Origin: a virus
Taxonomy: Duplodnaviria; Heunggongvirae; Uroviricota; Caudoviricetes
Length of the DNA: 6,218 nt
Reading direction: 5' to 3' (one strand)
Virus record (IMG/VR): IMGVR_UViG_2531839579_000022
Made by a program: the position numbers and the translations under genes. Positions within the stretch are counted from its first letter, which is position 1, and each line of letters starts with the position of its first letter. The notes beneath the pieces are model-generated. The model did not search any database and was not told the origin of the DNA. It saw only the letters and a list, made by a program, of their open reading frames with translations. Below, piece by piece: positions 1 through 6,218 of the stretch.

Positions 1-22
1 TAACTATTTGATAATTAATAAA

Positions 23-1303
23 TTAATTTTGCGCCACCTCGTTTTGGGGCATGGTTGGGGCAAACTCGCTTAGCTGTGTATTTAGCAGGGCTACCTGTGC
101 ATTATTGTTTTCAGACATCCATTTCCCGTATACCTGAAACACCATTTGCGCATCTGCATGTCCCATCTGGTTTGCTATGAATGCCGGGTTGGCACCGGCT
201 GTCAGCGACCAGCAGGCATAAGTATGTCTCGACTGATATGATTTGCGGTGGCGGAGGCCAGCGCGCTTTATCGCTGCGTCCCACATCTGCCTTATTGAGT
301 CAACGGTAAAATGGTCACCATAATTTTTTACTCTCGCTGACACTTCAGGTTGAAAAACAAAGGTGCATTTTTGTTTTTCTGTTCTGCCGAACTCTCTGAG
401 GTGAACGTCAATAATATGTTCTTTGCTCAGCCTCGTTAGTGTCATCTGACTCCTGAGAGCGTCGATTGCAGGCTTGATAAGGTGAATTACCCGATTGGTA
501 CCAGCCTGTGTTTTCGGTACCGTAAAACGATCTTTTGCTAAATTTCTCCTGATCATCATTGTTCCATTTTTCAGATCTATGTCCTCCCACCCAAGCGCAC
601 ACAGTTCACCAGGGCGAATGCCTGTATAAACAGAAACACACCATAAATTTTTGGCCTGCTGATTTCTGCAGGCGTCGATAAGACGGATAAATTCCTCCCG
701 TGAAAGAGGATCAGGAATGGTTCTTGATTCCTTTAATGGCGAGATCCCCTTAAACGGATTATCTGCCAGGTAACCGTTATCAACACCAAACTGGAACACG
801 GCGTAAAGATTTGTCATGTAATTATTTACGGTGACAGCCGATCTCCCCGGTTGCGTAACAATATAATTACTTTTGGGGATCTGGTATCCAGTAAGTAACT
901 CTTTACGTACCGCCAGCAATTTTTCTTTATTAATCGACGAGGCAAGATTTTTTTCACCGATTATGCTCAGAATATTTTTGATGACGGCACGGTACGTGTT
1001 GAGTGACGTTTTTGCGACTTCCGTTTCTTTCAGTGCCAGAAATTTTTCAGCCAGTTCCTTTATGGTTAAATCTTGCCGGGCCTCACCAAATTTTTCCAGA
1101 TTGTGTGAGGAGGGAAACTGTTTTGCATAGTCGAAAACGCCGGTTTTTATTGCATAACAAACAGAGGCGCGCAGCTCACCTGCAATGCGCCTGTTTTTTG
1201 TCGTGTCAGGAACCCCCAGATTTTCCCTGACTCTTACACCTTTATAAACAAACCAGATACGTAATTTCCCTCCATGGTTTTCCACGCCTGTCGGATATTT
1301 CAT
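23..1303 (-). CDS. int: Tyrosine recombinase / prophage integrase (Rac IntR / Qin IntQ-like family)
   Basis: Long minus-strand ORF (track 23..1318, 431 aa). The N-terminus (KYPTGVENHGGKLRIWFVYKGVRVRENLG) resembles the arm-binding domain of Rac/Qin-type integrases. The C-terminus carries a tyrosine-recombinase box II-like region (RHRKSYQSRHTYACWSLTAGANP...GHADAQMVFQVYGKW) with candidate catalytic His/Arg/Tyr. The first ATG (1318) has no Shine-Dalgarno; the ATG at 1303 (MKYPTGV) is preceded by GAGAGAAG, so that start is preferred. Last gene of the leftward operon, directly downstream of a small xis-like gene. Confidence 0.92.
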   Translation of the reverse strand: MKYPTGVENHGGKLRIWFVYKGVRVRENLGVPDTTKNRRIAGELRASVCYAIKTGVFDYAKQFPSSHNLEKFGEARQDLTIKELAEKFLALKETEVAKTSLNTYRAVIKNILSIIGEKNLASSINKEKLLAVRKELLTGYQIPKSNYIVTQPGRSAVTVNNYMTNLYAVFQFGVDNGYLADNPFKGISPLKESRTIPDPLSREEFIRLIDACRNQQAKNLWCVSVYTGIRPGELCALGWEDIDLKNGTMMIRRNLAKDRFTVPKTQAGTNRVIHLIKPAIDALRSQMTLTRLSKEHIIDVHLREFGRTEKQKCTFVFQPEVSARVKNYGDHFTVDSIRQMWDAAIKRAGLRHRKSYQSRHTYACWSLTAGANPAFIANQMGHADAQMVFQVYGKWMSENNNAQVALLNTQLSEFAPTMPQNEVAQN

Positions 1304-1337
1304 TTTAGCTTCTCTCATTGGTTAGTATTGTTTTTAG

Positions 1338-1589
1338 TCAAGTAAGATGACGTCTTGGTCTTGCTGATGCCTGACGTTCAATCCAGCGATCAATTTCTTC
1401 CAGGTTGTAAAAGCATGGGCTGTTATCCCATGGCATACCGTCATGGGCTACATGCTTATATTCCCTTCCTTCCATAAACGATTTTTCCCTGGCTTTTTTT
1501 AGTGTTCCCTTTTTTATTCCTTTCAGCGCAATTAGCTGTTCTTCGGATACCCATTTACCGGGAGAGACAATCATGATTACTTCGCTCAT
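1338..1589 (-). CDS. xis: Excisionase-like small DNA-binding protein (Xis / YdaQ-like)
   Basis: 83-aa ORF directly upstream of int on the same strand with a 19-nt gap, the classic xis-int arrangement. Basic C-terminus. The sequence (GKWVSEEQLIALKGIKKGTLKKAREKSFMEGREY...) is recalled as similar to the DUF1233/YdaQ excisionase-like family of Rac-type prophages; this is from memory, not a search. Contains an A7 homopolymer in coding (plus 1494-1500). Confidence 0.65.
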   Translation of the reverse strand: MSEVIMIVSPGKWVSEEQLIALKGIKKGTLKKAREKSFMEGREYKHVAHDGMPWDNSPCFYNLEEIDRWIERQASARPRRHLT

Positions 1590-1615
1590 CGCTTTTATCT
1601 CTTACTTCAGATGAG

Positions 1616-1647
1616 CGCCGGTTGCAGAATACCAGTCACAACCGGCG
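1616..1647 (-). promoter_or_regulatory. GC-rich hairpin in the exonuclease-xis intergenic region
   Basis: 9-bp perfect stem CGCCGGTTG (1616-1624) paired with CAACCGGCG (1639-1647), 14-nt loop, no adjacent U-tract on either strand. Sits between the exonuclease stop (1659) and the xis start (1589). Confidence 0.3.
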
Positions 1648-1658
1648 ATGGTTGAACA

Positions 1659-2447
1659 TTAAAAATCAGCCTGACTCGGGATCAGTTTTTGTATCGTAGC
1701 TGTAACGTATTTTGCCTGGTGACGGGCGTCATCCAGTGCATTGTGGCGCACGCCTTCGAATGGAATAACGGTTCTGGCATCAAAGTCGATTGTTTTTCCC
1801 AGCTCAACGATTGTGCGTACATCGCGATCGTTGTGGTAGCGCCACGGGCAGGGGATGTCCAGACGTTCGTATGAGGTGCGCAAAATTGCGTTATCGAAAG
1901 TCGCACCATTACCCCATACCTGAACGAATTTTTCATCTGAGTATTCGTTGATGAACTCCCGAAACTGCGAAAGGGCATCCTTCAGTTTTACCTGGTCTGT
2001 TAAAATGGCAGCTCTGGCTTCACTGGACTGCTTCAGCCACCATTCGATGGTTCCACCGTCAGGAACAGCCCCTGTATTCATTGCGTCAGTCAGACTGATA
2101 ACGATATAAAATACTGGCCCGATTTCCCCTGTTTGTGGGTCGAAGAAAACCGCACCAATAACCACGATGGGCGCATTGGTGTTGGTTCCCATTGTTTCAA
2201 GGTCGATCATCAGGTGGTACCACACTCTGCTGGTGGATGTGATAACGTGATGACCGTTCACCGAAATTAAGGAATCTGCCGTCTCGCCAGTTTCACTATC
2301 GCTGGCGTGGTCCTGAGCGCTGCCAGCATTCTCCTTGTGTGGATGTTCAGCGCCTTCCATTTTCTCCGAATCGTCTTCCTGAACTTCAACCTGGTTCTTG
2401 TCATCGAATGTTTCCTGGTATGTTGCGTCGCCCATCACCGCCCACAT
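1659..2447 (-). CDS. DEDDh-family (DnaQ/RNase T-like) 3'-5' exonuclease with an acidic N-terminal extension
   Basis: ORF of 262 aa. Exo I motif in [11 protein letters not shown] (D-x-E after a beta-strand); Exo II-like [12 protein letters not shown]; Exo [16 protein letters not shown] (His plus Asp, DEDDh type). The start is uncertain. ATG 2447 overlaps the upstream ORF by 47 nt and has a poor SD. ATG 2360 (MEGAEHP...) has GGAG 3 nt upstream and no overlap. A start at Met80 (2210) is excluded because it would remove the beta-strand before D-x-E. Confidence 0.8.
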
Positions 2448-3378
2448 CAGGGCAGTTGCCGCCCCGTCTGCCGCAGGCGGTGCAGATCTTTTCCGGTTCC
2501 TGTTGCCACTGGTTCAGGTGTTTCGTTTCTGGCTCGTTTTGTAACGCATTTGGGCTGTTTTGTTCCGCTTTCTGGTAGTTCCGTTCCGATTCATGCTGGT
2601 TCTGGTTTACAGAATCGCGGGTCTGGATCCCCTTAACCCATTTCGGATCATTCGGGTCGCTAATCCCTGCAACAAATTCTCCGCGAGAGGCAGCAAGCAA
2701 CTTATCGGCGTCAGGCTGGCTGATATTGGCTGCCTGCATAATTTTGTTTACTTCGTCAGCGGTAACTTTTACCGGCCCTGGTTGTGCGGTCGTGTCAGAT
2801 GCACCAGTATTTTGTTGTGAACCTGAGTATGTACCGTTTTTGCGGGCGAAATATTCTTCTTTCGTGATTTCAGTAGCCCCGGCAGCCAGTGCCTTATCCA
2901 GACCAGAAAGTTTGTTTGCGCGACCGTATTTTTCGCCATCCTTGTCGGTGAAGAGGAAGTAGAACGGCCCCTCACGCTCTACAGATGGTTCGACTTCCAC
3001 TTTGCATTCGGTTTTTTCGTTGTCCGGAATTGCCGTTTCCACTGCATCAGTTTCTGGTACTGGCGACGAGAGAGTATCAGTTGCGATCTGATTTGTTCCT
3101 TCATCTTCAAACACGCCCTTTGTAGTCAGGTATTCAGTAATGTATTTGTTCAGTACCACAGGGTCTTTGTGAATGTCGATCGGACGCTCACGGACAAGGC
3201 CAAAAATAGTCTGGCGGTCGTAGCGAAGGGCATCAGGCTGTTTGCGATTGATGCGAGATACGCTTCCAGTCTTCGCGGTCGTTGTCGATAACTTCATTTT
3301 TTGCCCAGCGATGGATGCTGCCGTCAATGTTTCCGGCATCCACATCACCAGGCCAGAGAGCGTAGGCCAGTTCATCAT
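2401..3378 (-). CDS. Hypothetical prophage protein with Q/N/E-rich tail; likely the C-terminal segment of a larger frameshift-disrupted gene
   Basis: ORF of 325 aa in the track. The sequence from about residue 45 onward ([40 protein letters not shown]...) looks like genuine protein. The first ~44 residues ([38 protein letters not shown]) are low quality and overlap a better-looking reading frame (track ORF 3233..3493). See the frameshift finding. Function unknown. Confidence 0.5.
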
Positions 3379-4127
3379 CCAGTGTTTTCCATGTCTGCTT
3401 GTATTCGCGACGAATGGCGCAGTGACAGGGGGATTTTTCCTGTTGAGTTTTCAGTGTTCTGCCGGTTGACTCTGGCGTAGGCGAGATCAACAACAGACGT
3501 GTATTTCCCGGTTTCTTTGCGTTCGGCTTCGCGACGTTTTTTCCAGGTGCGTAATTCTGTCTGGATCTCAGGCCATTTTGCGCCCGGCTTACATTTATGT
3601 TTAACCCACCCGATGGCGAACAGCTTTAGTTCTGAATACATGACGTTAACTTCAGGCATTTTCATCAATGCTTCAACGATATGCCCGTCGAATGTTGCCA
3701 TGTCTTCCTGCAACAATTCCTGTGCGCTAATCACCATATCAACGGTGATGTTTTCACATGTACCGAACTTAACCAGGACCGCGTTCTGTACTTCAAGGGA
3801 CAGCTTGTCAAAATTGACGTTCATCGGATCGGATTCTGGTTCGACCGGAATAAAGGAAGCGGATTCCTCATCCCAGCGGTTTTCCTGCATATATTCAGCA
3901 TCCCAGGAATCGAGGGCAGGGCGGGGTATACCGGGTTTATCCTCGCAGACAAGAAATTTATAAGCGCAGTCCTGAGCAGCCGGATAATGTTCCAGGAATT
4001 GCCAGTGAAATTTTGCGCGGGCGCGACGTTCATCACCGGCTTCAATGGCAGTGGCTACAGCGACGGCACCTTCTTCCTTTATTGCCTGTTCGTCCGGAAT
4101 GGCGGCGCAAATAAAGACTTTACTCAT
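3375..4127 (-). CDS. Hypothetical prophage protein; likely the N-terminal segment of the same frameshift-disrupted gene (occupies the ydfE position of the Qin dicB operon)
   Basis: ORF of 250 aa. ATG at 4127 is preceded by GAGGT with an 8-nt spacer. Protein-like composition through about ...YARVNRQNTENSTGKI, then a junk-like tail ([18 protein letters not shown]) that starts at a G5/C5 homopolymer (plus 3428-3432). Directly downstream of the ydfD-like gene in the operon. Confidence 0.6.
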   Translation of the reverse strand: MSKVFICAAIPDEQAIKEEGAVAVATAIEAGDERRARAKFHWQFLEHYPAAQDCAYKFLVCEDKPGIPRPALDSWDAEYMQENRWDEESASFIPVEPESDPMNVNFDKLSLEVQNAVLVKFGTCENITVDMVISAQELLQEDMATFDGHIVEALMKMPEVNVMYSELKLFAIGWVKHKCKPGAKWPEIQTELRTWKKRREAERKETGKYTSVVDLAYARVNRQNTENSTGKIPLSLRHSSRIQADMENTG

Positions 4128-4206
4128 TTTGTTTTACCTCATTACAGATTTAAGGGTGAACAAATCCCTGCCATTGCTGGCATGTAAAAATGAAACTGGA
4201 TATTAA

Positions 4207-4410
4207 TTACGGCGCTGTTTTTAATCCTGCCGGGATTTCGTTATTATCCATGCGAATAACTTTCTCGACCGGATAACAGTTACCAGGAATTTTCTGTTCT
4301 GCTGCGGCAGCCATACATTCTTTCATTGAACCATATATACCAGTAACCACATCAACAGGTTCGCCAGTATTAAGAAAAACAGTCAGAGTGAGGGCAACAG
4401 CAGTATTCAT
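4207..4410 (-). CDS. ydfD: Small membrane protein, YdfD-like (Qin prophage lysis protein family)
   Basis: 67 aa from the ATG at 4410. That ATG overlaps the dicB stop as ATGA (stop 4407-4409, start 4408-4410). SD AAGGA sits 8 nt upstream. The N-terminal hydrophobic segment MNTAVALTLTVFL is consistent with a single transmembrane helix. Size and position directly after dicB match K-12 ydfD (63 aa). The track's longer 85-aa version starting at 4464 has no usable SD. Confidence 0.6.
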   Translation of the reverse strand: MNTAVALTLTVFLNTGEPVDVVTGIYGSMKECMAAAAEQKIPGNCYPVEKVIRMDNNEIPAGLKTAP

Positions 4411-4595
4411 TGCCAGTATCCTTTTTGCATCGGGCGTAAACGTGCCAGCATTGAAAGAATGCATATTTTATTTAATAGCTCCCGTTCGTGTTTTCTCTTG
4501 TTAATGGCATCTTCAGTAAATACAGGGTTACTGATAGTGACACCAATTTCAAAACAACCTTCAGACGTATTAACGTTTGGTAATAACGTTTCCAT
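4407..4595 (-). CDS. dicB: Cell division inhibitor DicB
   Basis: 62 aa from the ATG at 4595, preceded by GAGGA with a 7-nt spacer. The sequence METLLPNVNTSEGCFEIGVTISNPVFTEDAINKRK...LNKICI.SMLARLR matches my recollection of K-12 DicB (62 aa, MinC-dependent division inhibitor). The track ORF 4407..4691 extends upstream to a GTG but has no SD there. Lies about 180 nt downstream of the DicF-like terminator, as in Qin. Confidence 0.82.
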   Translation of the reverse strand: METLLPNVNTSEGCFEIGVTISNPVFTEDAINKRKHERELLNKICILSMLARLRPMQKGYWQ

Positions 4596-4612
4596 TATCG
4601 CGTCCTCAACAA

Positions 4613-4774
4613 TGAATTTTGTGATGCGGTGCCTGGTGCCTCCAGGTGACGTTAACCAGTTAATAATTAACGCCGGATACAGAGAACCCACCCATAAGAA
4701 CCAATACGGAAGTCAACTGGCCTTTTTAACTGTTCCGCGTGCGCTGAGCCGCATTCACCGCATCACAAAATTCA
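4613..4774. repeat. Perfect 19-bp inverted repeat (TGAATTTTGTGATGCGGTG / CACCGCATCACAAAATTCA) enclosing a 124-nt spacer
   Basis: Left arm 4613-4631 and right arm 4756-4774 are exact reverse complements; the bases immediately outside both arms do not pair. Located between the DicF-like terminator and the dicB SD. The spacer holds a CCTGG-N5-CCAGG hairpin and a 13-bp palindrome GTTAATAATTAAC (4659-4671). Confidence 0.85.
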
Positions 4775-4778
4775 CTTT

Positions 4779-4821
4779 AAAAGGGGCGGGTATCATGGGA
4801 AAAACAAAACGGATACCCGCC
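4779..4821 (-). terminator. Putative Rho-independent terminator (3' end of DicF-like RNA)
   Basis: 10-bp perfect GC-rich stem (plus 4785-4794 GGCGGGTATC paired with 4812-4821 GATACCCGCC) with a 17-nt loop. On the minus strand it is followed by CC-UUUU (plus 4779-4782). The U-tract is short and the loop long, so termination is probably partial. On the plus strand it is followed by A-rich sequence, so it is not a plus-strand terminator. Confidence 0.45.
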
Positions 4822-4835
4822 AAAAGGTAATCAAC
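4779..4835 (-). ncRNA. dicF: DicF-like small RNA (ftsZ-repressing sRNA family), diverged variant
   Basis: Minus-strand sequence ...UUGAUUACCUUUUGGCGGGUAUC-CGUUUUGUUUUUCCCAU-GAUACCCGCCCCUUUU. The 5' part (UUUGGCGG.UAUC.GUUUU) resembles my recollection of K-12 DicF (..CGUUUGGCGGUAUCAGUUUUAC..). Position is between the ydfC-like gene and dicB, as in the Qin dicB operon. Ends in a GC stem plus U-tract. The 5' end is not determinable from sequence, since in K-12 it is made by RNase E processing. Confidence 0.55.
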
Positions 4836-5161
4836 ATGGGTTGTTGCAGCGGGATTGTCACTCAGGCGTATGGTCAACCTGACAACCCGGTGGACATTTG
4901 CGAGGAACGGAGAACCCCCGCCATACTTACCGCCGCGCCATTTCGCGGAGTGCCACAACCGGAAGCGCACGGTCGACGAAAATTTAACGACAGGCTATCT
5001 ATGAACCAGCAACCTCGCCGTGCGCTTTCGCGTTATGCTCTGACTTTTCAGAGAAATATCCTTTCAGTAAACTGTCAGTGCCGGATGCTCACCCGTGTCC
5101 GGCGCACACACTCCACCTCACCCGTGGAGAACTCCTTAATTACCAACCCTCAGGAGGGTGA

Positions 5162-5395
5162 ATGTTAAAATCAACGCTTATTGCTAAATGCCTTTATCAA
5201 AATCGCATGGTAAGCAGCATTTCAATAGGCGAGTCTGCAGTTAAAAGTATTTTCGAAGAGTACTTTCCCGGGCATGATTTTAATAAATGGAATACCAAAT
5301 TACCGCCAGCAGTTTCAACGCGTATTCTGAAAGCAACTGAAAGAGCAAGTACAATTCGCGTTAACTATTTCATTAAAGATTTGTGGGATCTTTGA
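5162..5395 (+). CDS. Hypothetical small protein (77 aa); the only plus-strand gene candidate, convergent with the 135-aa ORF
   Basis: ATG at 5162 is preceded by a strong SD AGGAGG (5152-5157) with a 4-nt spacer. AT-rich coding region, in contrast to the GC-rich segment directly upstream. Not hydrophobic; no recognisable motif. Its 3' end overlaps the 3' end of the minus-strand 135-aa ORF by 23 nt (5373-5395). Real coding status is uncertain. Confidence 0.45.
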   Translation: MLKSTLIAKCLYQNRMVSSISIGESAVKSIFEEYFPGHDFNKWNTKLPPAVSTRILKATERASTIRVNYFIKDLWDL

Positions 5396-5780
5396 TATCC
5401 ACAGAGCCTAAAGTATGTGCATATGGATGTGCTATTGTGCGCCCTCGCAGATTTGCATCATTTTCTAAATTCACTGAACGAAACAGGGCATCAACAAGGC
5501 TCTGTACAATGCAAAGGCAATCGAAGACTGTCGCCGTTTCTGTTTTGATTGATGAAAGAACATGGCCATTCACGCAAACAGAAATTACCCGTTTATTAAC
5601 ATCGCTTTCCTGCTTTTGATTATCAGAACCATATAGCCCTGAAAAAGCATTGCGCACATTACGAACCATATTATCGATGGTTTCTTTTTTGGTGTATGCC
5701 GGGTCAATTTTCACCAGACTATCACCGAGTGTCGTTGCAGCAATTATCTGGATTTCTTTTGGTAAATCTTTAAATTCCAT
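5373..5780 (-). CDS. Hypothetical protein (135 aa), no counterpart recalled in the K-12 dicB operon
   Basis: ATG at 5780 is preceded by GAGG with a 6-nt spacer and lies 22 nt downstream of the stop of the 72-aa ORF, so it is operonic. Soluble-looking sequence with no transmembrane segment and no recognisable catalytic motif. Moderately AT-rich. Confidence 0.6.
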   Translation of the reverse strand: MEFKDLPKEIQIIAATTLGDSLVKIDPAYTKKETIDNMVRNVRNAFSGLYGSDNQKQESDVNKRVISVCVNGHVLSSIKTETATVFDCLCIVQSLVDALFRSVNLENDANLRGRTIAHPYAHTLGSVDIKDPTNL

Positions 5781-5802
5781 TATTAGCCTCGTTGGTTAAC
5801 CA

Positions 5803-6021
5803 TTAACGTGGGTATGTAATCATTCTGGCAATGCTTAATGCCGCTGCTTTTTCCAGATTGGTGATATCCTGCTCCAGAGCGGACAGATTTTCAGCCTGCT
5901 TAGCCCTGGCTTCATTGGCCCATTTCAGGTCCTGCGCAGCCTTAATTTTCTGGTGCATCCACTCATAAAGTTCATCATCGGTATAGTCTGGCGCGATGAT
6001 GACGGGTTCTCGTTTCTGCAT
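5803..6021 (-). CDS. Small hypothetical protein (72 aa), YdfC-like by size and position
   Basis: ATG at 6021 is preceded by GAGGAA with a 5-nt spacer. Predicted helical, coiled-coil-like sequence (KIKAAQDLKWANEARAKQAENLSALEQDITNLEKAAALSIARM). Same size as K-12 YdfC (72 aa) and in the same operon position; the sequence itself is not recalled, so no symbol is assigned. Confidence 0.55.
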   Translation of the reverse strand: MQKREPVIIAPDYTDDELYEWMHQKIKAAQDLKWANEARAKQAENLSALEQDITNLEKAAALSIARMITYPR

Positions 6022-6050
6022 ACTGATTCCTCGCGGTGCTGCTTCGCTTA

Positions 6051-6179
6051 TCAGCCGTTAGATTTTGCCGGGCTGGAAAGCGCCTGTATAAACTCACTGA
6101 AGCTGAGAGTTTCTTCGCCTTTGGCAAGGCCTTCGAAGTATTCTTCGTAAGCCTTTTCCATGATTGTGTCGAAATCCAT
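6051..6179 (-). CDS. Small hypothetical protein (42 aa), YdfB-like by size and position
   Basis: Not in the ORF track because it is short. Minus-strand ATG at 6179 is preceded by AGGTGAG with a 5-6-nt spacer; the protein is MDFDTIMEKAYEEYFEGLAKGEETLSFSEFIQALSSPAKSNG, ending at TGA 6051-6053. The frame stays open upstream to the window edge (VPVAGWKETQVSD), so a longer gene running out of the window cannot be excluded. Size equals K-12 YdfB (42 aa). Confidence 0.4.
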   Translation of the reverse strand: MDFDTIMEKAYEEYFEGLAKGEETLSFSEFIQALSSPAKSNG

Positions 6180-6218
6180 ATCACTCACCTGAGTTTCTTT
6201 CCAGCCAGCGACGGGCAC

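Follow-up and report, generated by a model that had tools for sequence, protein, structure and literature searches.

The window, by which we mean the whole 6,218-nucleotide stretch of DNA analysed here, lies at the end of the draft contig AQBU01000168.1 of E. coli p0305293.11 (GCA_000358575) and carries, on its minus strand, an integrase gene, an excisionase gene and the fragments of a large prophage exonuclease gene. The integration site adjoins rspB, which is also where Qin sits in K-12 (flanking genes in loci L001, L007 and L013), and the order of genes common to homologous prophages is dicB, DUF1482/ydfD, exonuclease, xis, int and rspB. The ORF at 1659–2447 that the initial annotation had singled out is ATG-initiated, 262 aa long and on the minus strand; the annotation placed it directly upstream of xis and int, which agrees with the positions of the two genes found directly downstream of it. 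Judged by its position, the exonuclease gene seems to belong to the leftward early operon. The interval from the repressor gene to int lacks recT, bet and erf, both in the window and in eight further loci (L001, L002, L003, L005, L006, L010, L011 and L014). An Rfam search of the locus returned neither DicF nor any other family above threshold, and exoD of K-12 DLP12, considered as a homologue, was rejected for lack of similarity. The features of the locus are as follows.

23–1318, minus strand: tyrosine integrase (Pfam PF12167, PF00589)
1338–1589, minus strand: excisionase of the DUF1233 family, the downstream neighbour (Pfam PF06806, E = 1.6e-31)
1659–4127, minus strand: whole prophage exonuclease gene, 826 aa if intact (PHROG 2082 order; intact CDS in homologues)
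1698–2216, minus strand: predicted DEDDh 3'-5' exonuclease domain, Rv2179c-like/DexA-like (Pfam; DexA alignment; Foldseek)
1728–1730, minus strand: predicted catalytic codon D240
1743–1745, minus strand: predicted catalytic codon H235
1893–1895, minus strand: predicted catalytic codon D185
2196–2198, minus strand: predicted catalytic codon E84
2202–2204, minus strand: predicted catalytic codon D82
2223–2435, minus strand: acidic interdomain linker, probably disordered (RecE 528–591 alignment; low pLDDT)
2441–2520, minus strand: frameshift cluster 3, about eight bases deleted (homologue alignments; intact in proteins P0129, P0285 and P0286)
2521–3245, minus strand: RecE-like central region, approximately residues 293–535, in the frame of ORF 2401–3378 (BLASTP to K-12 RecE)
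3246–3255, minus strand: frameshift cluster 2, two 1-nt deletions (homologue alignments)
3256–3417, minus strand: third-frame segment (ORF 3233–3493), approximately residues 234–292 (BLASTP)
3418–3433, minus strand: frameshift cluster 1, two 1-nt deletions (alignments to L001, L003, L010 and L011)
3434–4127, minus strand: N-terminal module YdfE_N/YdfE_C, approximately residues 1–232, in the frame of ORF 3375–4127 (Pfam PF27430, PF27432)

Gene model and reading-frame breaks

The ORFs at 3375–4127, 2401–3378 and 1659–2447 match PHROG 2082 (823 aa) in order, covering its positions 1–233, 292–566 and 567–823, respectively, and the short ORF at 3233–3493 is 95% identical to residues 234–292 of protein P0282 by BLASTP. 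As a single intact CDS of 823–826 aa, the span 1659–4127 recurs in phages, in two sibling isolates and in the E. coli genomes nearest to the window, including loci L001, L003, L010 and L011 and phages mEp460_ev081 and Tritos, and phage Evi gives a near-full-length match; the gene occurs in viable phages. At the N-terminal end, the module shares 90% identity with ydfE, a pseudogene of K-12 Qin, and at the other end the C-terminal 260 aa are 99.6–100% identical to intact homologues such as WP_000048591.1; the DEDDh domain agrees at every position (100%) with that of the sibling proteins P0285 and P0286. The window thus carries the same gene as the E. coli lambdoid prophage exonuclease (WP_000048591.1, 826 aa; PHROG 2082; K-12 remnant ydfE), differing from genes of that type in being split by about twelve 1-nt deletions and in containing a patch of SNPs from another prophage copy (3250–4500). 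Across the intact homologues, the modules are read in one frame with dN/dS values of 0.13–0.34 (0.13–0.17 for the N-terminal module and 0.17 for the DEDDh domain), against 0.67–0.76 for the linker, a pattern of purifying selection on the modules and more relaxed selection on the linker. Taken together, the alignments make it likely that 1659–2447 is the C-terminal third of a single gene (the final 260 of its 826 codons) belonging to a Qin-like lambdoid prophage of E. coli p0305293.11, and that consensus errors broke its frame.

The approximately twelve single-base deletions fall into three clusters and split the 826-aa gene into four reading-frame segments. Cluster 3 (2441–2520) garbles a zinc-ribbon-like CxxC...CxxC motif (CTACGQSGGGNCPECG when intact) and creates a false start at 2447; the same sequence is read through unbroken in sibling p0305293.5 (protein P0129) and is also intact in P0285 and P0286. 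Both deleted columns of cluster 1 vary among prophage copies, and overall 7 of the 12 deleted columns are sites that differ between prophage copies, compared with a background of 5% (binomial P = 5e-7). The median number of copies of the gene region per E. coli genome is two. In siblings p0305293.14 and p0305293.8 the locus likewise runs rspB-int-xis-exo-dicB, and its exonuclease gene is unbroken at 826 aa; an intact sibling locus spans 5667–18147 of APZZ01000106.1. Relative to these siblings, the window shows no mismatches at 1–2250 and 0–1 at 4750–6218, with 89–92 mismatches and 12 deleted bases inside 2250–4750. An exact-pattern scan of genome contigs gave no match to the frameshifted sequence. 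Because the deletions sit where prophage copies differ, the frame breaks in p0305293.11 are most likely assembly errors, as most likely is the patch of SNPs from another prophage copy; such errors would have arisen when the consensus combined reads that came from different prophage copies of the gene. When the 258-aa variant was looked up, the only contig recovered was an unrelated metagenomic one whose sequence starts within the gene.

It is improbable that the frameshifts are real and mark a decaying pseudogene of a cryptic prophage, with a 258–262-aa C-terminal piece perhaps expressed from an internal ATG. Decayed copies are indeed known elsewhere, K-12 Qin ydfE being an IS2-truncated remnant; the frameshifted fragments P0193, P0267 and P0209 come from complete genomes, and the annotation of several genomes includes short ORFs of 177–183 aa whose first codons are those of the catalytic motif. 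However, sibling isolates with identical flanks carry the intact gene, and twelve independent 1-nt deletions in a sequence otherwise almost unchanged from its closest allele are unlike pseudogene decay. The coincidence of the deletions with copy-variable sites and the presence of the SNP patch from another copy in the same region likewise argue for errors of assembly. A stand-alone gene that has a start of its own and encodes a DnaQ-like exonuclease extended at the N-terminus by an acidic, disordered stretch is scarcely credible despite the ATG-started 262-aa ORF and the 258-aa protein (ENG45341.1) that the source record annotates for this C-terminal piece, since the reading frame of the supposed extension runs on from upstream codons in every intact homologue, including the sibling isolates at the same locus, the extension is homologous to an internal linker of RecE, and the upstream overlap is a frameshift cluster. 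The initial annotation had left the start open between 2447, with a 47-nt overlap, and 2360, and had taken the upstream fragments for a separate large gene; with cluster 3 at 2441–2520 there is no real start codon at either position, and the upstream fragments belong to the same 826-aa gene. ORF fragments of repeated prophage genes in draft assemblies should accordingly be compared with intact homologues before 'extensions' and 'overlaps' are read from them.

Exonuclease domain and acidic linker

Residues 78–250 of the ORF match the Rv2179c-like Pfam family PF16473 with E = 8.2e-69 and a score of 231 bits, far above the cutoff of 27, over profile positions 2–175 of 177; the same residues also match PF00929 (RNase_T, E = 4e-6). 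Residues D82, E84, D185, H235 and D240 align with D7, E9, D119, H186 and D191 of T4 DexA, respectively, so that the D and E of ExoI, the D of ExoII and the H-x4-D of ExoIII are all present. These residues are invariant in alignments A1 (which includes T4 DexA) and A3, except that E84 is found in at least 90% of A3. An AF2 model of the domain, of moderate confidence (pLDDT 72, pTM 0.72), gave DexA (8KEL) as its top Foldseek match (E = 1.4e-10, TM 0.75), followed by RNase T (TM ~0.70), with Orn and Cap18 ranked lower. DexA is also the best sequence match among solved structures (E = 2.6e-9), and weak similarity to the oligoribonuclease family NF003765 was seen (E = 6e-4). Its sequence and its modelled RNase H-like fold identify the domain as one of the DEDDh 3'-5' exonucleases, with predicted activity. 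This was the assignment made in the initial annotation, and the profile search and structural comparison that had been suggested for checking it both uphold it.

The 52-residue stretch immediately upstream of the domain is acidic, with 17 D/E against 3 K/R (17 against 4 over the linker at 2223–2435), and was modelled as disordered, with block-mean pLDDT values of 22–28 in a low-confidence full-length model. It aligns closely with residues 528–591 of Rac RecE, within a BLASTP alignment to RecE 278–591, and by this homology it is an interdomain linker, probably a disordered one. The acidity and the modelled disorder proposed for this region in the initial annotation are thus retained, whereas its description as an N-terminal extension gives way to that of an internal linker.

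RecE-like centre and modular architecture

In the intact protein, residues 262–625 are homologous to Rac RecE 278–591 (BLASTP E = 2e-60, 39% identity), with the best agreement across the linker. The RecE equivalog NF007259 matches only residues 244–625, at 275.6 bits, below its cutoff of 1269. No match to PF12684, the C-terminal PD-(D/E)XK domain of RecE, was found in the intact protein, PF16473 lying in its place, and the Exonuc_VIII N-terminal domain PF06630 is absent from it, with YdfE_N and YdfE_C there instead. The central region holds the most conserved motif of the family, as judged from the family consensus, and its zinc-ribbon-like CxxC...CxxC motif gives a weak match to Pfam DZR (E = 0.07). 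A PDB profile search with the family alignment recovered only the RecE C-terminal domain 3H4R; neither the N-terminal nor the central part found a match. The AF2 model of the whole protein, built on a usable alignment that was shallow (all sequences at least 65% identical), was too poor for a fold search, with a pLDDT of 41. By these alignments, the intact protein consists of a YdfE-type N-terminus, a RecE-like centre with the zinc-ribbon-like motif, an acidic flexible linker and a DEDDh C-terminus.

Rac RecE (exonuclease VIII, 866 aa) is among the closest known counterparts. The two proteins share the homologous centre and acidic linker, and both are large proteins of the early left operon encoded close to xis and int. 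They differ in that Rac RecE has a PF06630 N-terminus and a 5'-3' PD-(D/E)XK C-terminus (PF12684, PDB 3H4R) and is followed by recT, whereas the window locus is without an annealing-protein gene. By sequence comparison, the DEDDh domain stands where RecE has its C-terminal 5'-3' PD-(D/E)XK domain. The initial annotation had remarked that the gene occupies the slot of a 5'-3' nuclease, and this turns out to apply more literally than was meant, the DEDDh domain replacing the RecE nuclease on a shared scaffold.

The RecE-like central region is found in only 93 representative clusters among 1.84 billion proteins. Among these 93 family representatives, each N-terminal type is seen with each C-terminal type, giving all four pairings, and the E. 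coli protein P0202 has the same centre and the same acidic linker joined to a RecE-type PD-(D/E)XK nuclease. It is possible, though we hold the idea as doubtful, that RecE is a member of a small modular family, mainly of E. coli and its close relatives, in which two N-terminal types (Exonuc_VIII and YdfE) are combined with a common centre and a nuclease of either polarity is swapped at the linker, the DEDDh version having no annealing gene and maybe not serving recombination. Nucleases of opposite polarity on the same RecE-like scaffold would provide a handle on the role of the N-terminal two-thirds of RecE. DnaQ-like 3'-5' nuclease genes near int in lambdoid Rec modules have been reported (Zheng et al., Genome Res 2025, PMC12315714), and the accessible portion of that paper describes neither a RecE-like scaffold nor nuclease-domain swapping.

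Predicted activity and nearest characterised nucleases

Our leading proposal for the activity, a tentative one drawn by analogy, is that the DEDDh protein is an Mg2+-dependent 3'-5' exonuclease acting on DNA 3' ends. T4 DexA and E. coli EcD, the nearest characterised homologues, are DNases (PMC12153337). The RecE-like centre would direct the protein to whatever substrate or partner RecE has, a step suggested by the shared architecture, and during lytic growth the protein would trim or destroy 3' tails and linear DNA. As the locus has no strand-annealing partner, 3' tails would be trimmed or destroyed rather than prepared for annealing. Should the centre guide the protein to a particular target of host or phage origin, the DEDDh form may process DNA ends independently of RecT, counteract recombination or attack competing phages; in each of these cases it would be no recombination exonuclease.

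Prophages often bear exclusion genes, and a defence nuclease akin to HREX/EcD, encoded by the prophage and selectively degrading the modified (5hmC) DNA of superinfecting T-even phages, is an alternative that we consider unlikely. The domain resembles T4 DexA (exonuclease A; PDB 8KEL/8KEN), with ~29% identity and the five catalytic residues aligned, the equivalent of DexA D169 is conserved, and EcD, which belongs to the same DexA-like family, protects E. coli and breaks down the DNA of T4 (PMC12153337). Against this, the equivalent of DexA W152 is H or Y and not W, and the tetramer Asp D90 is kept here and invariant in A1 but is Ala in EcD; both points are tentative because the alignment is only 29% identical, and gaps lie near the W152 position. 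The loops of DexA are absent here, and DexA and EcD ('HREX') are small stand-alone proteins, whereas the domain described here is the C-terminus of an 826-aa protein. EcD also differs at its termini, with a MIDTET... start and a ...TIPETYD end, and identity of the window's gene with EcD (NAR 2025 paper) was rejected, since the EcD primers imply different termini. In addition, a lambda-type leftward early operon, in which position would place this gene, is repressed in lysogens, and in PADLOC the one match was to a generic, Cas-associated DEDDh entry (ORF, E = 4.5e-6; full protein, E = 3.5e-5).

There is less still to be said for an exonuclease that acts on RNA, as Rv2179c does, or for an enzyme of anti-defence that degrades short signalling oligonucleotides, either of which would be surprising here. 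The weak NF003765 similarity and the presence of Orn and Cap18 among the lower fold matches are in keeping with such a substrate, Orn and RNase T being enzymes that act on short substrates. However, the top match in both sequence and fold, DexA, is a DNase, the scaffold on which the domain sits is that of RecE, a DNA-end-processing enzyme, and neither a specific signature nor a gene context for signalling molecules was found. A counterpoint to a DNA substrate is that PF16473 is named after Rv2179c, the 3' exoribonuclease of Mycobacterium tuberculosis and founder of the family, which the domain matches nearly end to end. Rv2179c is a stand-alone bacterial exoribonuclease; it was not among the PDB sequence-search matches at E <= 0.01, and its substrate preference cannot be transferred to the DEDDh domain.

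For the window alone, the analysis yields little beyond a correctly guessed domain in a mis-assembled copy of a common gene. The initial annotation had presented a DnaQ-like nuclease as unusual content for this lambdoid slot, a view at odds with the DnaQ-type genes near int described by Zheng et al. and with the prevalence of the gene region, which matches 4755 of 5426 complete E. coli genomes. The gene is an ordinary, very common and already annotated prophage exonuclease gene, its function being predicted from sequence. This gene family, very widespread yet unstudied, raises the question of why a 3'-5' exonuclease that lacks an annealing partner is retained by so many lambdoid phages. The PGAP label for the gene is exonuclease; intact homologues also bear the name '3'-5' exoribonuclease domain-containing protein', and in older annotation the gene is often called 'exonuclease VIII'.

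The nuclease domain and its reading frame

Read on the minus strand, the window represents the left arm of a lambdoid prophage whose gene order and integration next to rspB are as in Qin, a cryptic prophage of E. coli K-12.

Genes of the left arm
23–1318, minus strand: integrase
1338–1589, minus strand: excisionase
1659–2447, minus strand: 262-aa ORF
2401–3378, minus strand: ORF matching PHROG 2082 positions 292–566
3375–4127, minus strand: ORF matching PHROG 2082 positions 1–233
4207–4464, minus strand: DUF1482/YdfD-like gene
4407–4691, minus strand: dicB
5803–6021, minus strand: ydfC

Residues 78–250 of the 262-aa ORF match Pfam PF16473, the Rv2179c-like 3'-5' exoribonuclease family (E = 8.2e-69, 231 bits against a cutoff of 27), and, more weakly, PF00929 (RNase_T). 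The only solved structures reached by sequence search were 8KEL and 8KEN (E = 2.6e-9), which are of phage T4 DexA, a 3'-5' DNA exonuclease (PMC12153337). Alignment of the domain family with DexA placed the catalytic residues D7, E9, D119, H186 and D191 of DexA opposite D82, E84, D185, H235 and D240 of the ORF. The AF2 model of the domain (pLDDT 72, pTM 0.72) likewise had DexA as its best Foldseek match (E = 1.4e-10, TM 0.75), with RNase T, a Cas2-fused DnaQ domain, ERI nucleases, Orn and Cap18 at lower ranks. Profile match, aligned D/E/D/D/H residues and fold thus confirm the DEDDh 3'-5' exonuclease domain proposed in the initial annotation; the domain family is found in 1249 phage records.

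The domain is real, but the gene model assigned to it is not. PHROG 2082 ("exonuclease", 823 aa) is matched in order by the three ORFs, the 262-aa ORF covering positions 567–823, and a fourth fragment, ORF 3233–3493, carries residues 234–292. The entire span forms a single intact 826-aa CDS in the complete E. coli genomes closest to the window, where it is annotated as 'exonuclease', '3'-5' exonuclease' or '3'-5' exoribonuclease domain-containing protein'. Phages mEp460_ev081 and Tritos have an intact 823-aa gene with the order dicB-ydfD-exo-xis-int kept, and phage Evi has a near-full-length match. Compared with its closest allele (E. coli locus L003), from which positions 1–3750 show almost no substitutions, the window lacks about 12 bases in three clusters.

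Deletion clusters, from alignment to L003
3418–3433, minus strand: cluster 1
3246–3255, minus strand: cluster 2
2441–2520, minus strand: cluster 3

These deletions shift reading through three frames, and the original frame is regained at about 2446; the start codon previously placed at 2447, with its 47-nt overlap, is the point at which the frame returns, and the gene model is an artefact.

Origin of the frame breaks

An exact protein match placed the window at the end of a draft contig of E. coli p0305293.11 (AQBU01000168.1; assembly GCA_000358575.2), of which it makes up the final 6.2 kb. The same locus, with the gene intact at 826 aa (P0285 and P0286), is present in sibling isolates p0305293.14 and p0305293.8. 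Their assemblies (L010 and L011) show 0 mismatches to the window at 1–2250 and 0–1 at 4750–6218, against 89–92 at 2250–4750 (58 within 3250–3750), plus the deleted bases. The ~90 substitutions relative to these clonal siblings are restricted to the exonuclease and DUF1482 genes, and the patch resembles another prophage copy, as would result from mixing in reads of a second copy. Seven of the 12 deleted columns fall where two intact alleles differ (background 5%, binomial P = 5e-7), and a third sibling, p0305293.5, reads without interruption across cluster 3 (P0129). The gene region occurs in a median of two and a maximum of nine copies per E. coli genome; database entries for the gene are mostly 'partial' proteins at contig ends, which marks it as a repeat poorly handled by short-read assemblers. 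Judged from these sequence comparisons, the breaks most probably arose through faulty assembly. A real pseudogene confined to p0305293.11 is very improbable, even though genuinely decayed copies are known: K-12 ydfE, which shares 90% identity with the N-terminal ORF of the window, is an IS2-truncated N-terminal remnant of the same gene. The sequence at 2250–4750 is unfit for fine analysis.

The RecE scaffold and its terminal domains

When the intact protein was compared with K-12 Rac RecE by BLASTP, residues 262–625 aligned with RecE 278–591 (39% identity, E = 2e-60), with the best agreement in an acidic segment aligned to RecE 528–591. A zinc-ribbon-like motif, CxxC...CxxC, precedes this segment (17 D/E against 3 K/R in 52 residues); in the window the motif is scrambled by cluster 3. 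The segment was modelled as disordered (block-mean pLDDT 22–28, in a full-length model of low confidence overall), and its dN/dS of about 0.7 reflects relaxed constraint relative to the other modules, which are under purifying selection (0.13–0.34). The RecE alignment, position, acidity, modelled disorder and relaxed constraint together identify an interdomain linker common to RecE; what had been taken for an N-terminal extension is acidic and predicted to be disordered as described, but internal.

Architectures from N to C terminus
RecE: PF06630 (residues 2–178), central region, PD-(D/E)XK nuclease PF12684 (615–850)
Present protein: YdfE_N/YdfE_C (PF27430/PF27432), same central region, DEDDh domain (642–814)

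Against the RecE equivalog model the present protein scores 276 bits and falls short of the 1269-bit cutoff. In the E. coli protein P0202, an 85%-identical central region is joined via the same linker to a RecE-type PD-(D/E)XK domain. Searching 1.84 billion representative proteins with the central region returned only 93 clusters. A domain census of long family members, which also includes forms without a recognisable C-terminal domain, contained all four terminal combinations.

Terminal combinations in the census
YdfE_N with DEDDh: P0402, P0405, P0425
RecE_N with DEDDh: P0414, P0427
RecE_N with PD-(D/E)XK: RecE, P0471, P0467, P0494
YdfE_N with PD-(D/E)XK: P0437, P0458, P0466

The initial reading, a 3'-5' nuclease in place of a 5'-3' recombination nuclease, is literally true as a domain swap on the RecE scaffold. 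Synonymous divergence between L003 and mEp460 was 0.09 in the centre and 1.06 in the DEDDh domain, a roughly ten-fold spread along the gene that is consistent with frequent recombination between modules. In the comparison of 1659–4127 with loci L003, L005 and L006, this spread indicates mosaic recombination, with breakpoints near the acidic linker.

The most conserved stretch of the whole RecE/YdfE-scaffold family, Rac RecE included, is a motif at ~2640–2700 (minus strand; residues ~478–498 of the intact protein); it has no Pfam or PDB homologue and may serve as an interaction site within the part of RecE that is still uncharacterised.

The gene region was matched in 4755 of 5426 complete E. 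coli genomes. PGAP names the gene exonuclease; the older name, exodeoxyribonuclease VIII, is wrong for the catalytic domain. Zheng et al. (Genome Res 2025; PMC12315714) describe DnaQ-like 3'-5' nucleases in lambdoid Rec modules, as well as sporadic DnaQ-type genes of unknown role very near int, outside the canonical Rec module. The finding is thus already known in kind, and its initial interpretation holds in part. A modular RecE scaffold carrying nuclease domains of opposite polarity, of which the literature searched gave no description, would add modestly and testably.

Putative role and neighbouring features

The nearest characterised relatives, T4 DexA and its E. coli homologue EcD, act on DNA (PMC12153337). 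We tentatively propose a Mg2+-dependent 3'-5' DNA exonuclease that would be expressed from the early left operon and would trim or degrade linear DNA at its 3' ends; its RecE-like centre would provide a putative targeting function shared with RecE. A defence role of the HREX type is possible but not favoured: EcD degrades 5hmC T4 DNA (PMC12153337), but it is a different protein, the equivalent of DexA W152 tentatively reads H or Y here and that of D90, an Asp lost in EcD, is kept, and the gene position suggests an operon repressed in lysogens of lambda-type phages. Neither recT, bet nor erf lies between repressor and int in any DEDDh-version locus examined (the window, L001, L002, L003, two siblings, mEp460_ev081, Tritos and vB_EcoS-689R5), whereas Rac has recE-recT. 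The 3' tails used by annealing proteins and RecA are what a 3'-5' exonuclease removes, which makes an initiator of Red/RecET-type recombination unlikely. Nothing specific points to RNA or signalling oligonucleotides as the substrate; PADLOC returned just a generic Cas-associated DEDDh match.

DLP12 exoD, a K-12 pseudogene (locus L012, 2099–2362) in the equivalent position next to xisD-intD, is not homologous to the window exonuclease; the slot adjacent to xis-int thus holds unrelated nuclease remnants in different prophages. The DUF1482/YdfD-like ORF (85 aa) and dicB (94 aa) overlap by 58 nt in the mechanical ORF list (4207–4691, minus strand), whereas in related genomes their products are shorter (67 and 62 aa) and the overlap is only 4 nt; K-12 ydfD is annotated as a lysis protein. 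A 634-nt accessory segment (5149–5782), shared with L001 and the sibling assemblies and missing from the otherwise close L003, contains a 135-aa ORF of unknown function (5373–5780, minus strand; PHROG 1363), overlapped by an antisense 77-aa ORF (5162–5395, plus strand).

At the position of the dicF sRNA between ydfC and dicB (4770–4840, minus strand), resemblance to K-12 dicF is limited to the terminator (CCGCCCCTTTTAAAGTGAATT); the body differs. Rfam gave no DicF match even at E <= 1 and a sub-threshold STnc100 match at 4618–4772 (minus strand; 33.5 bits against a gathering score of 47). From 4750 onward the sibling assemblies match the window with one mismatch at most, so the divergence is probably real, and the position may encode a DicF-like sRNA that has diverged and whose target-pairing sequence is different.
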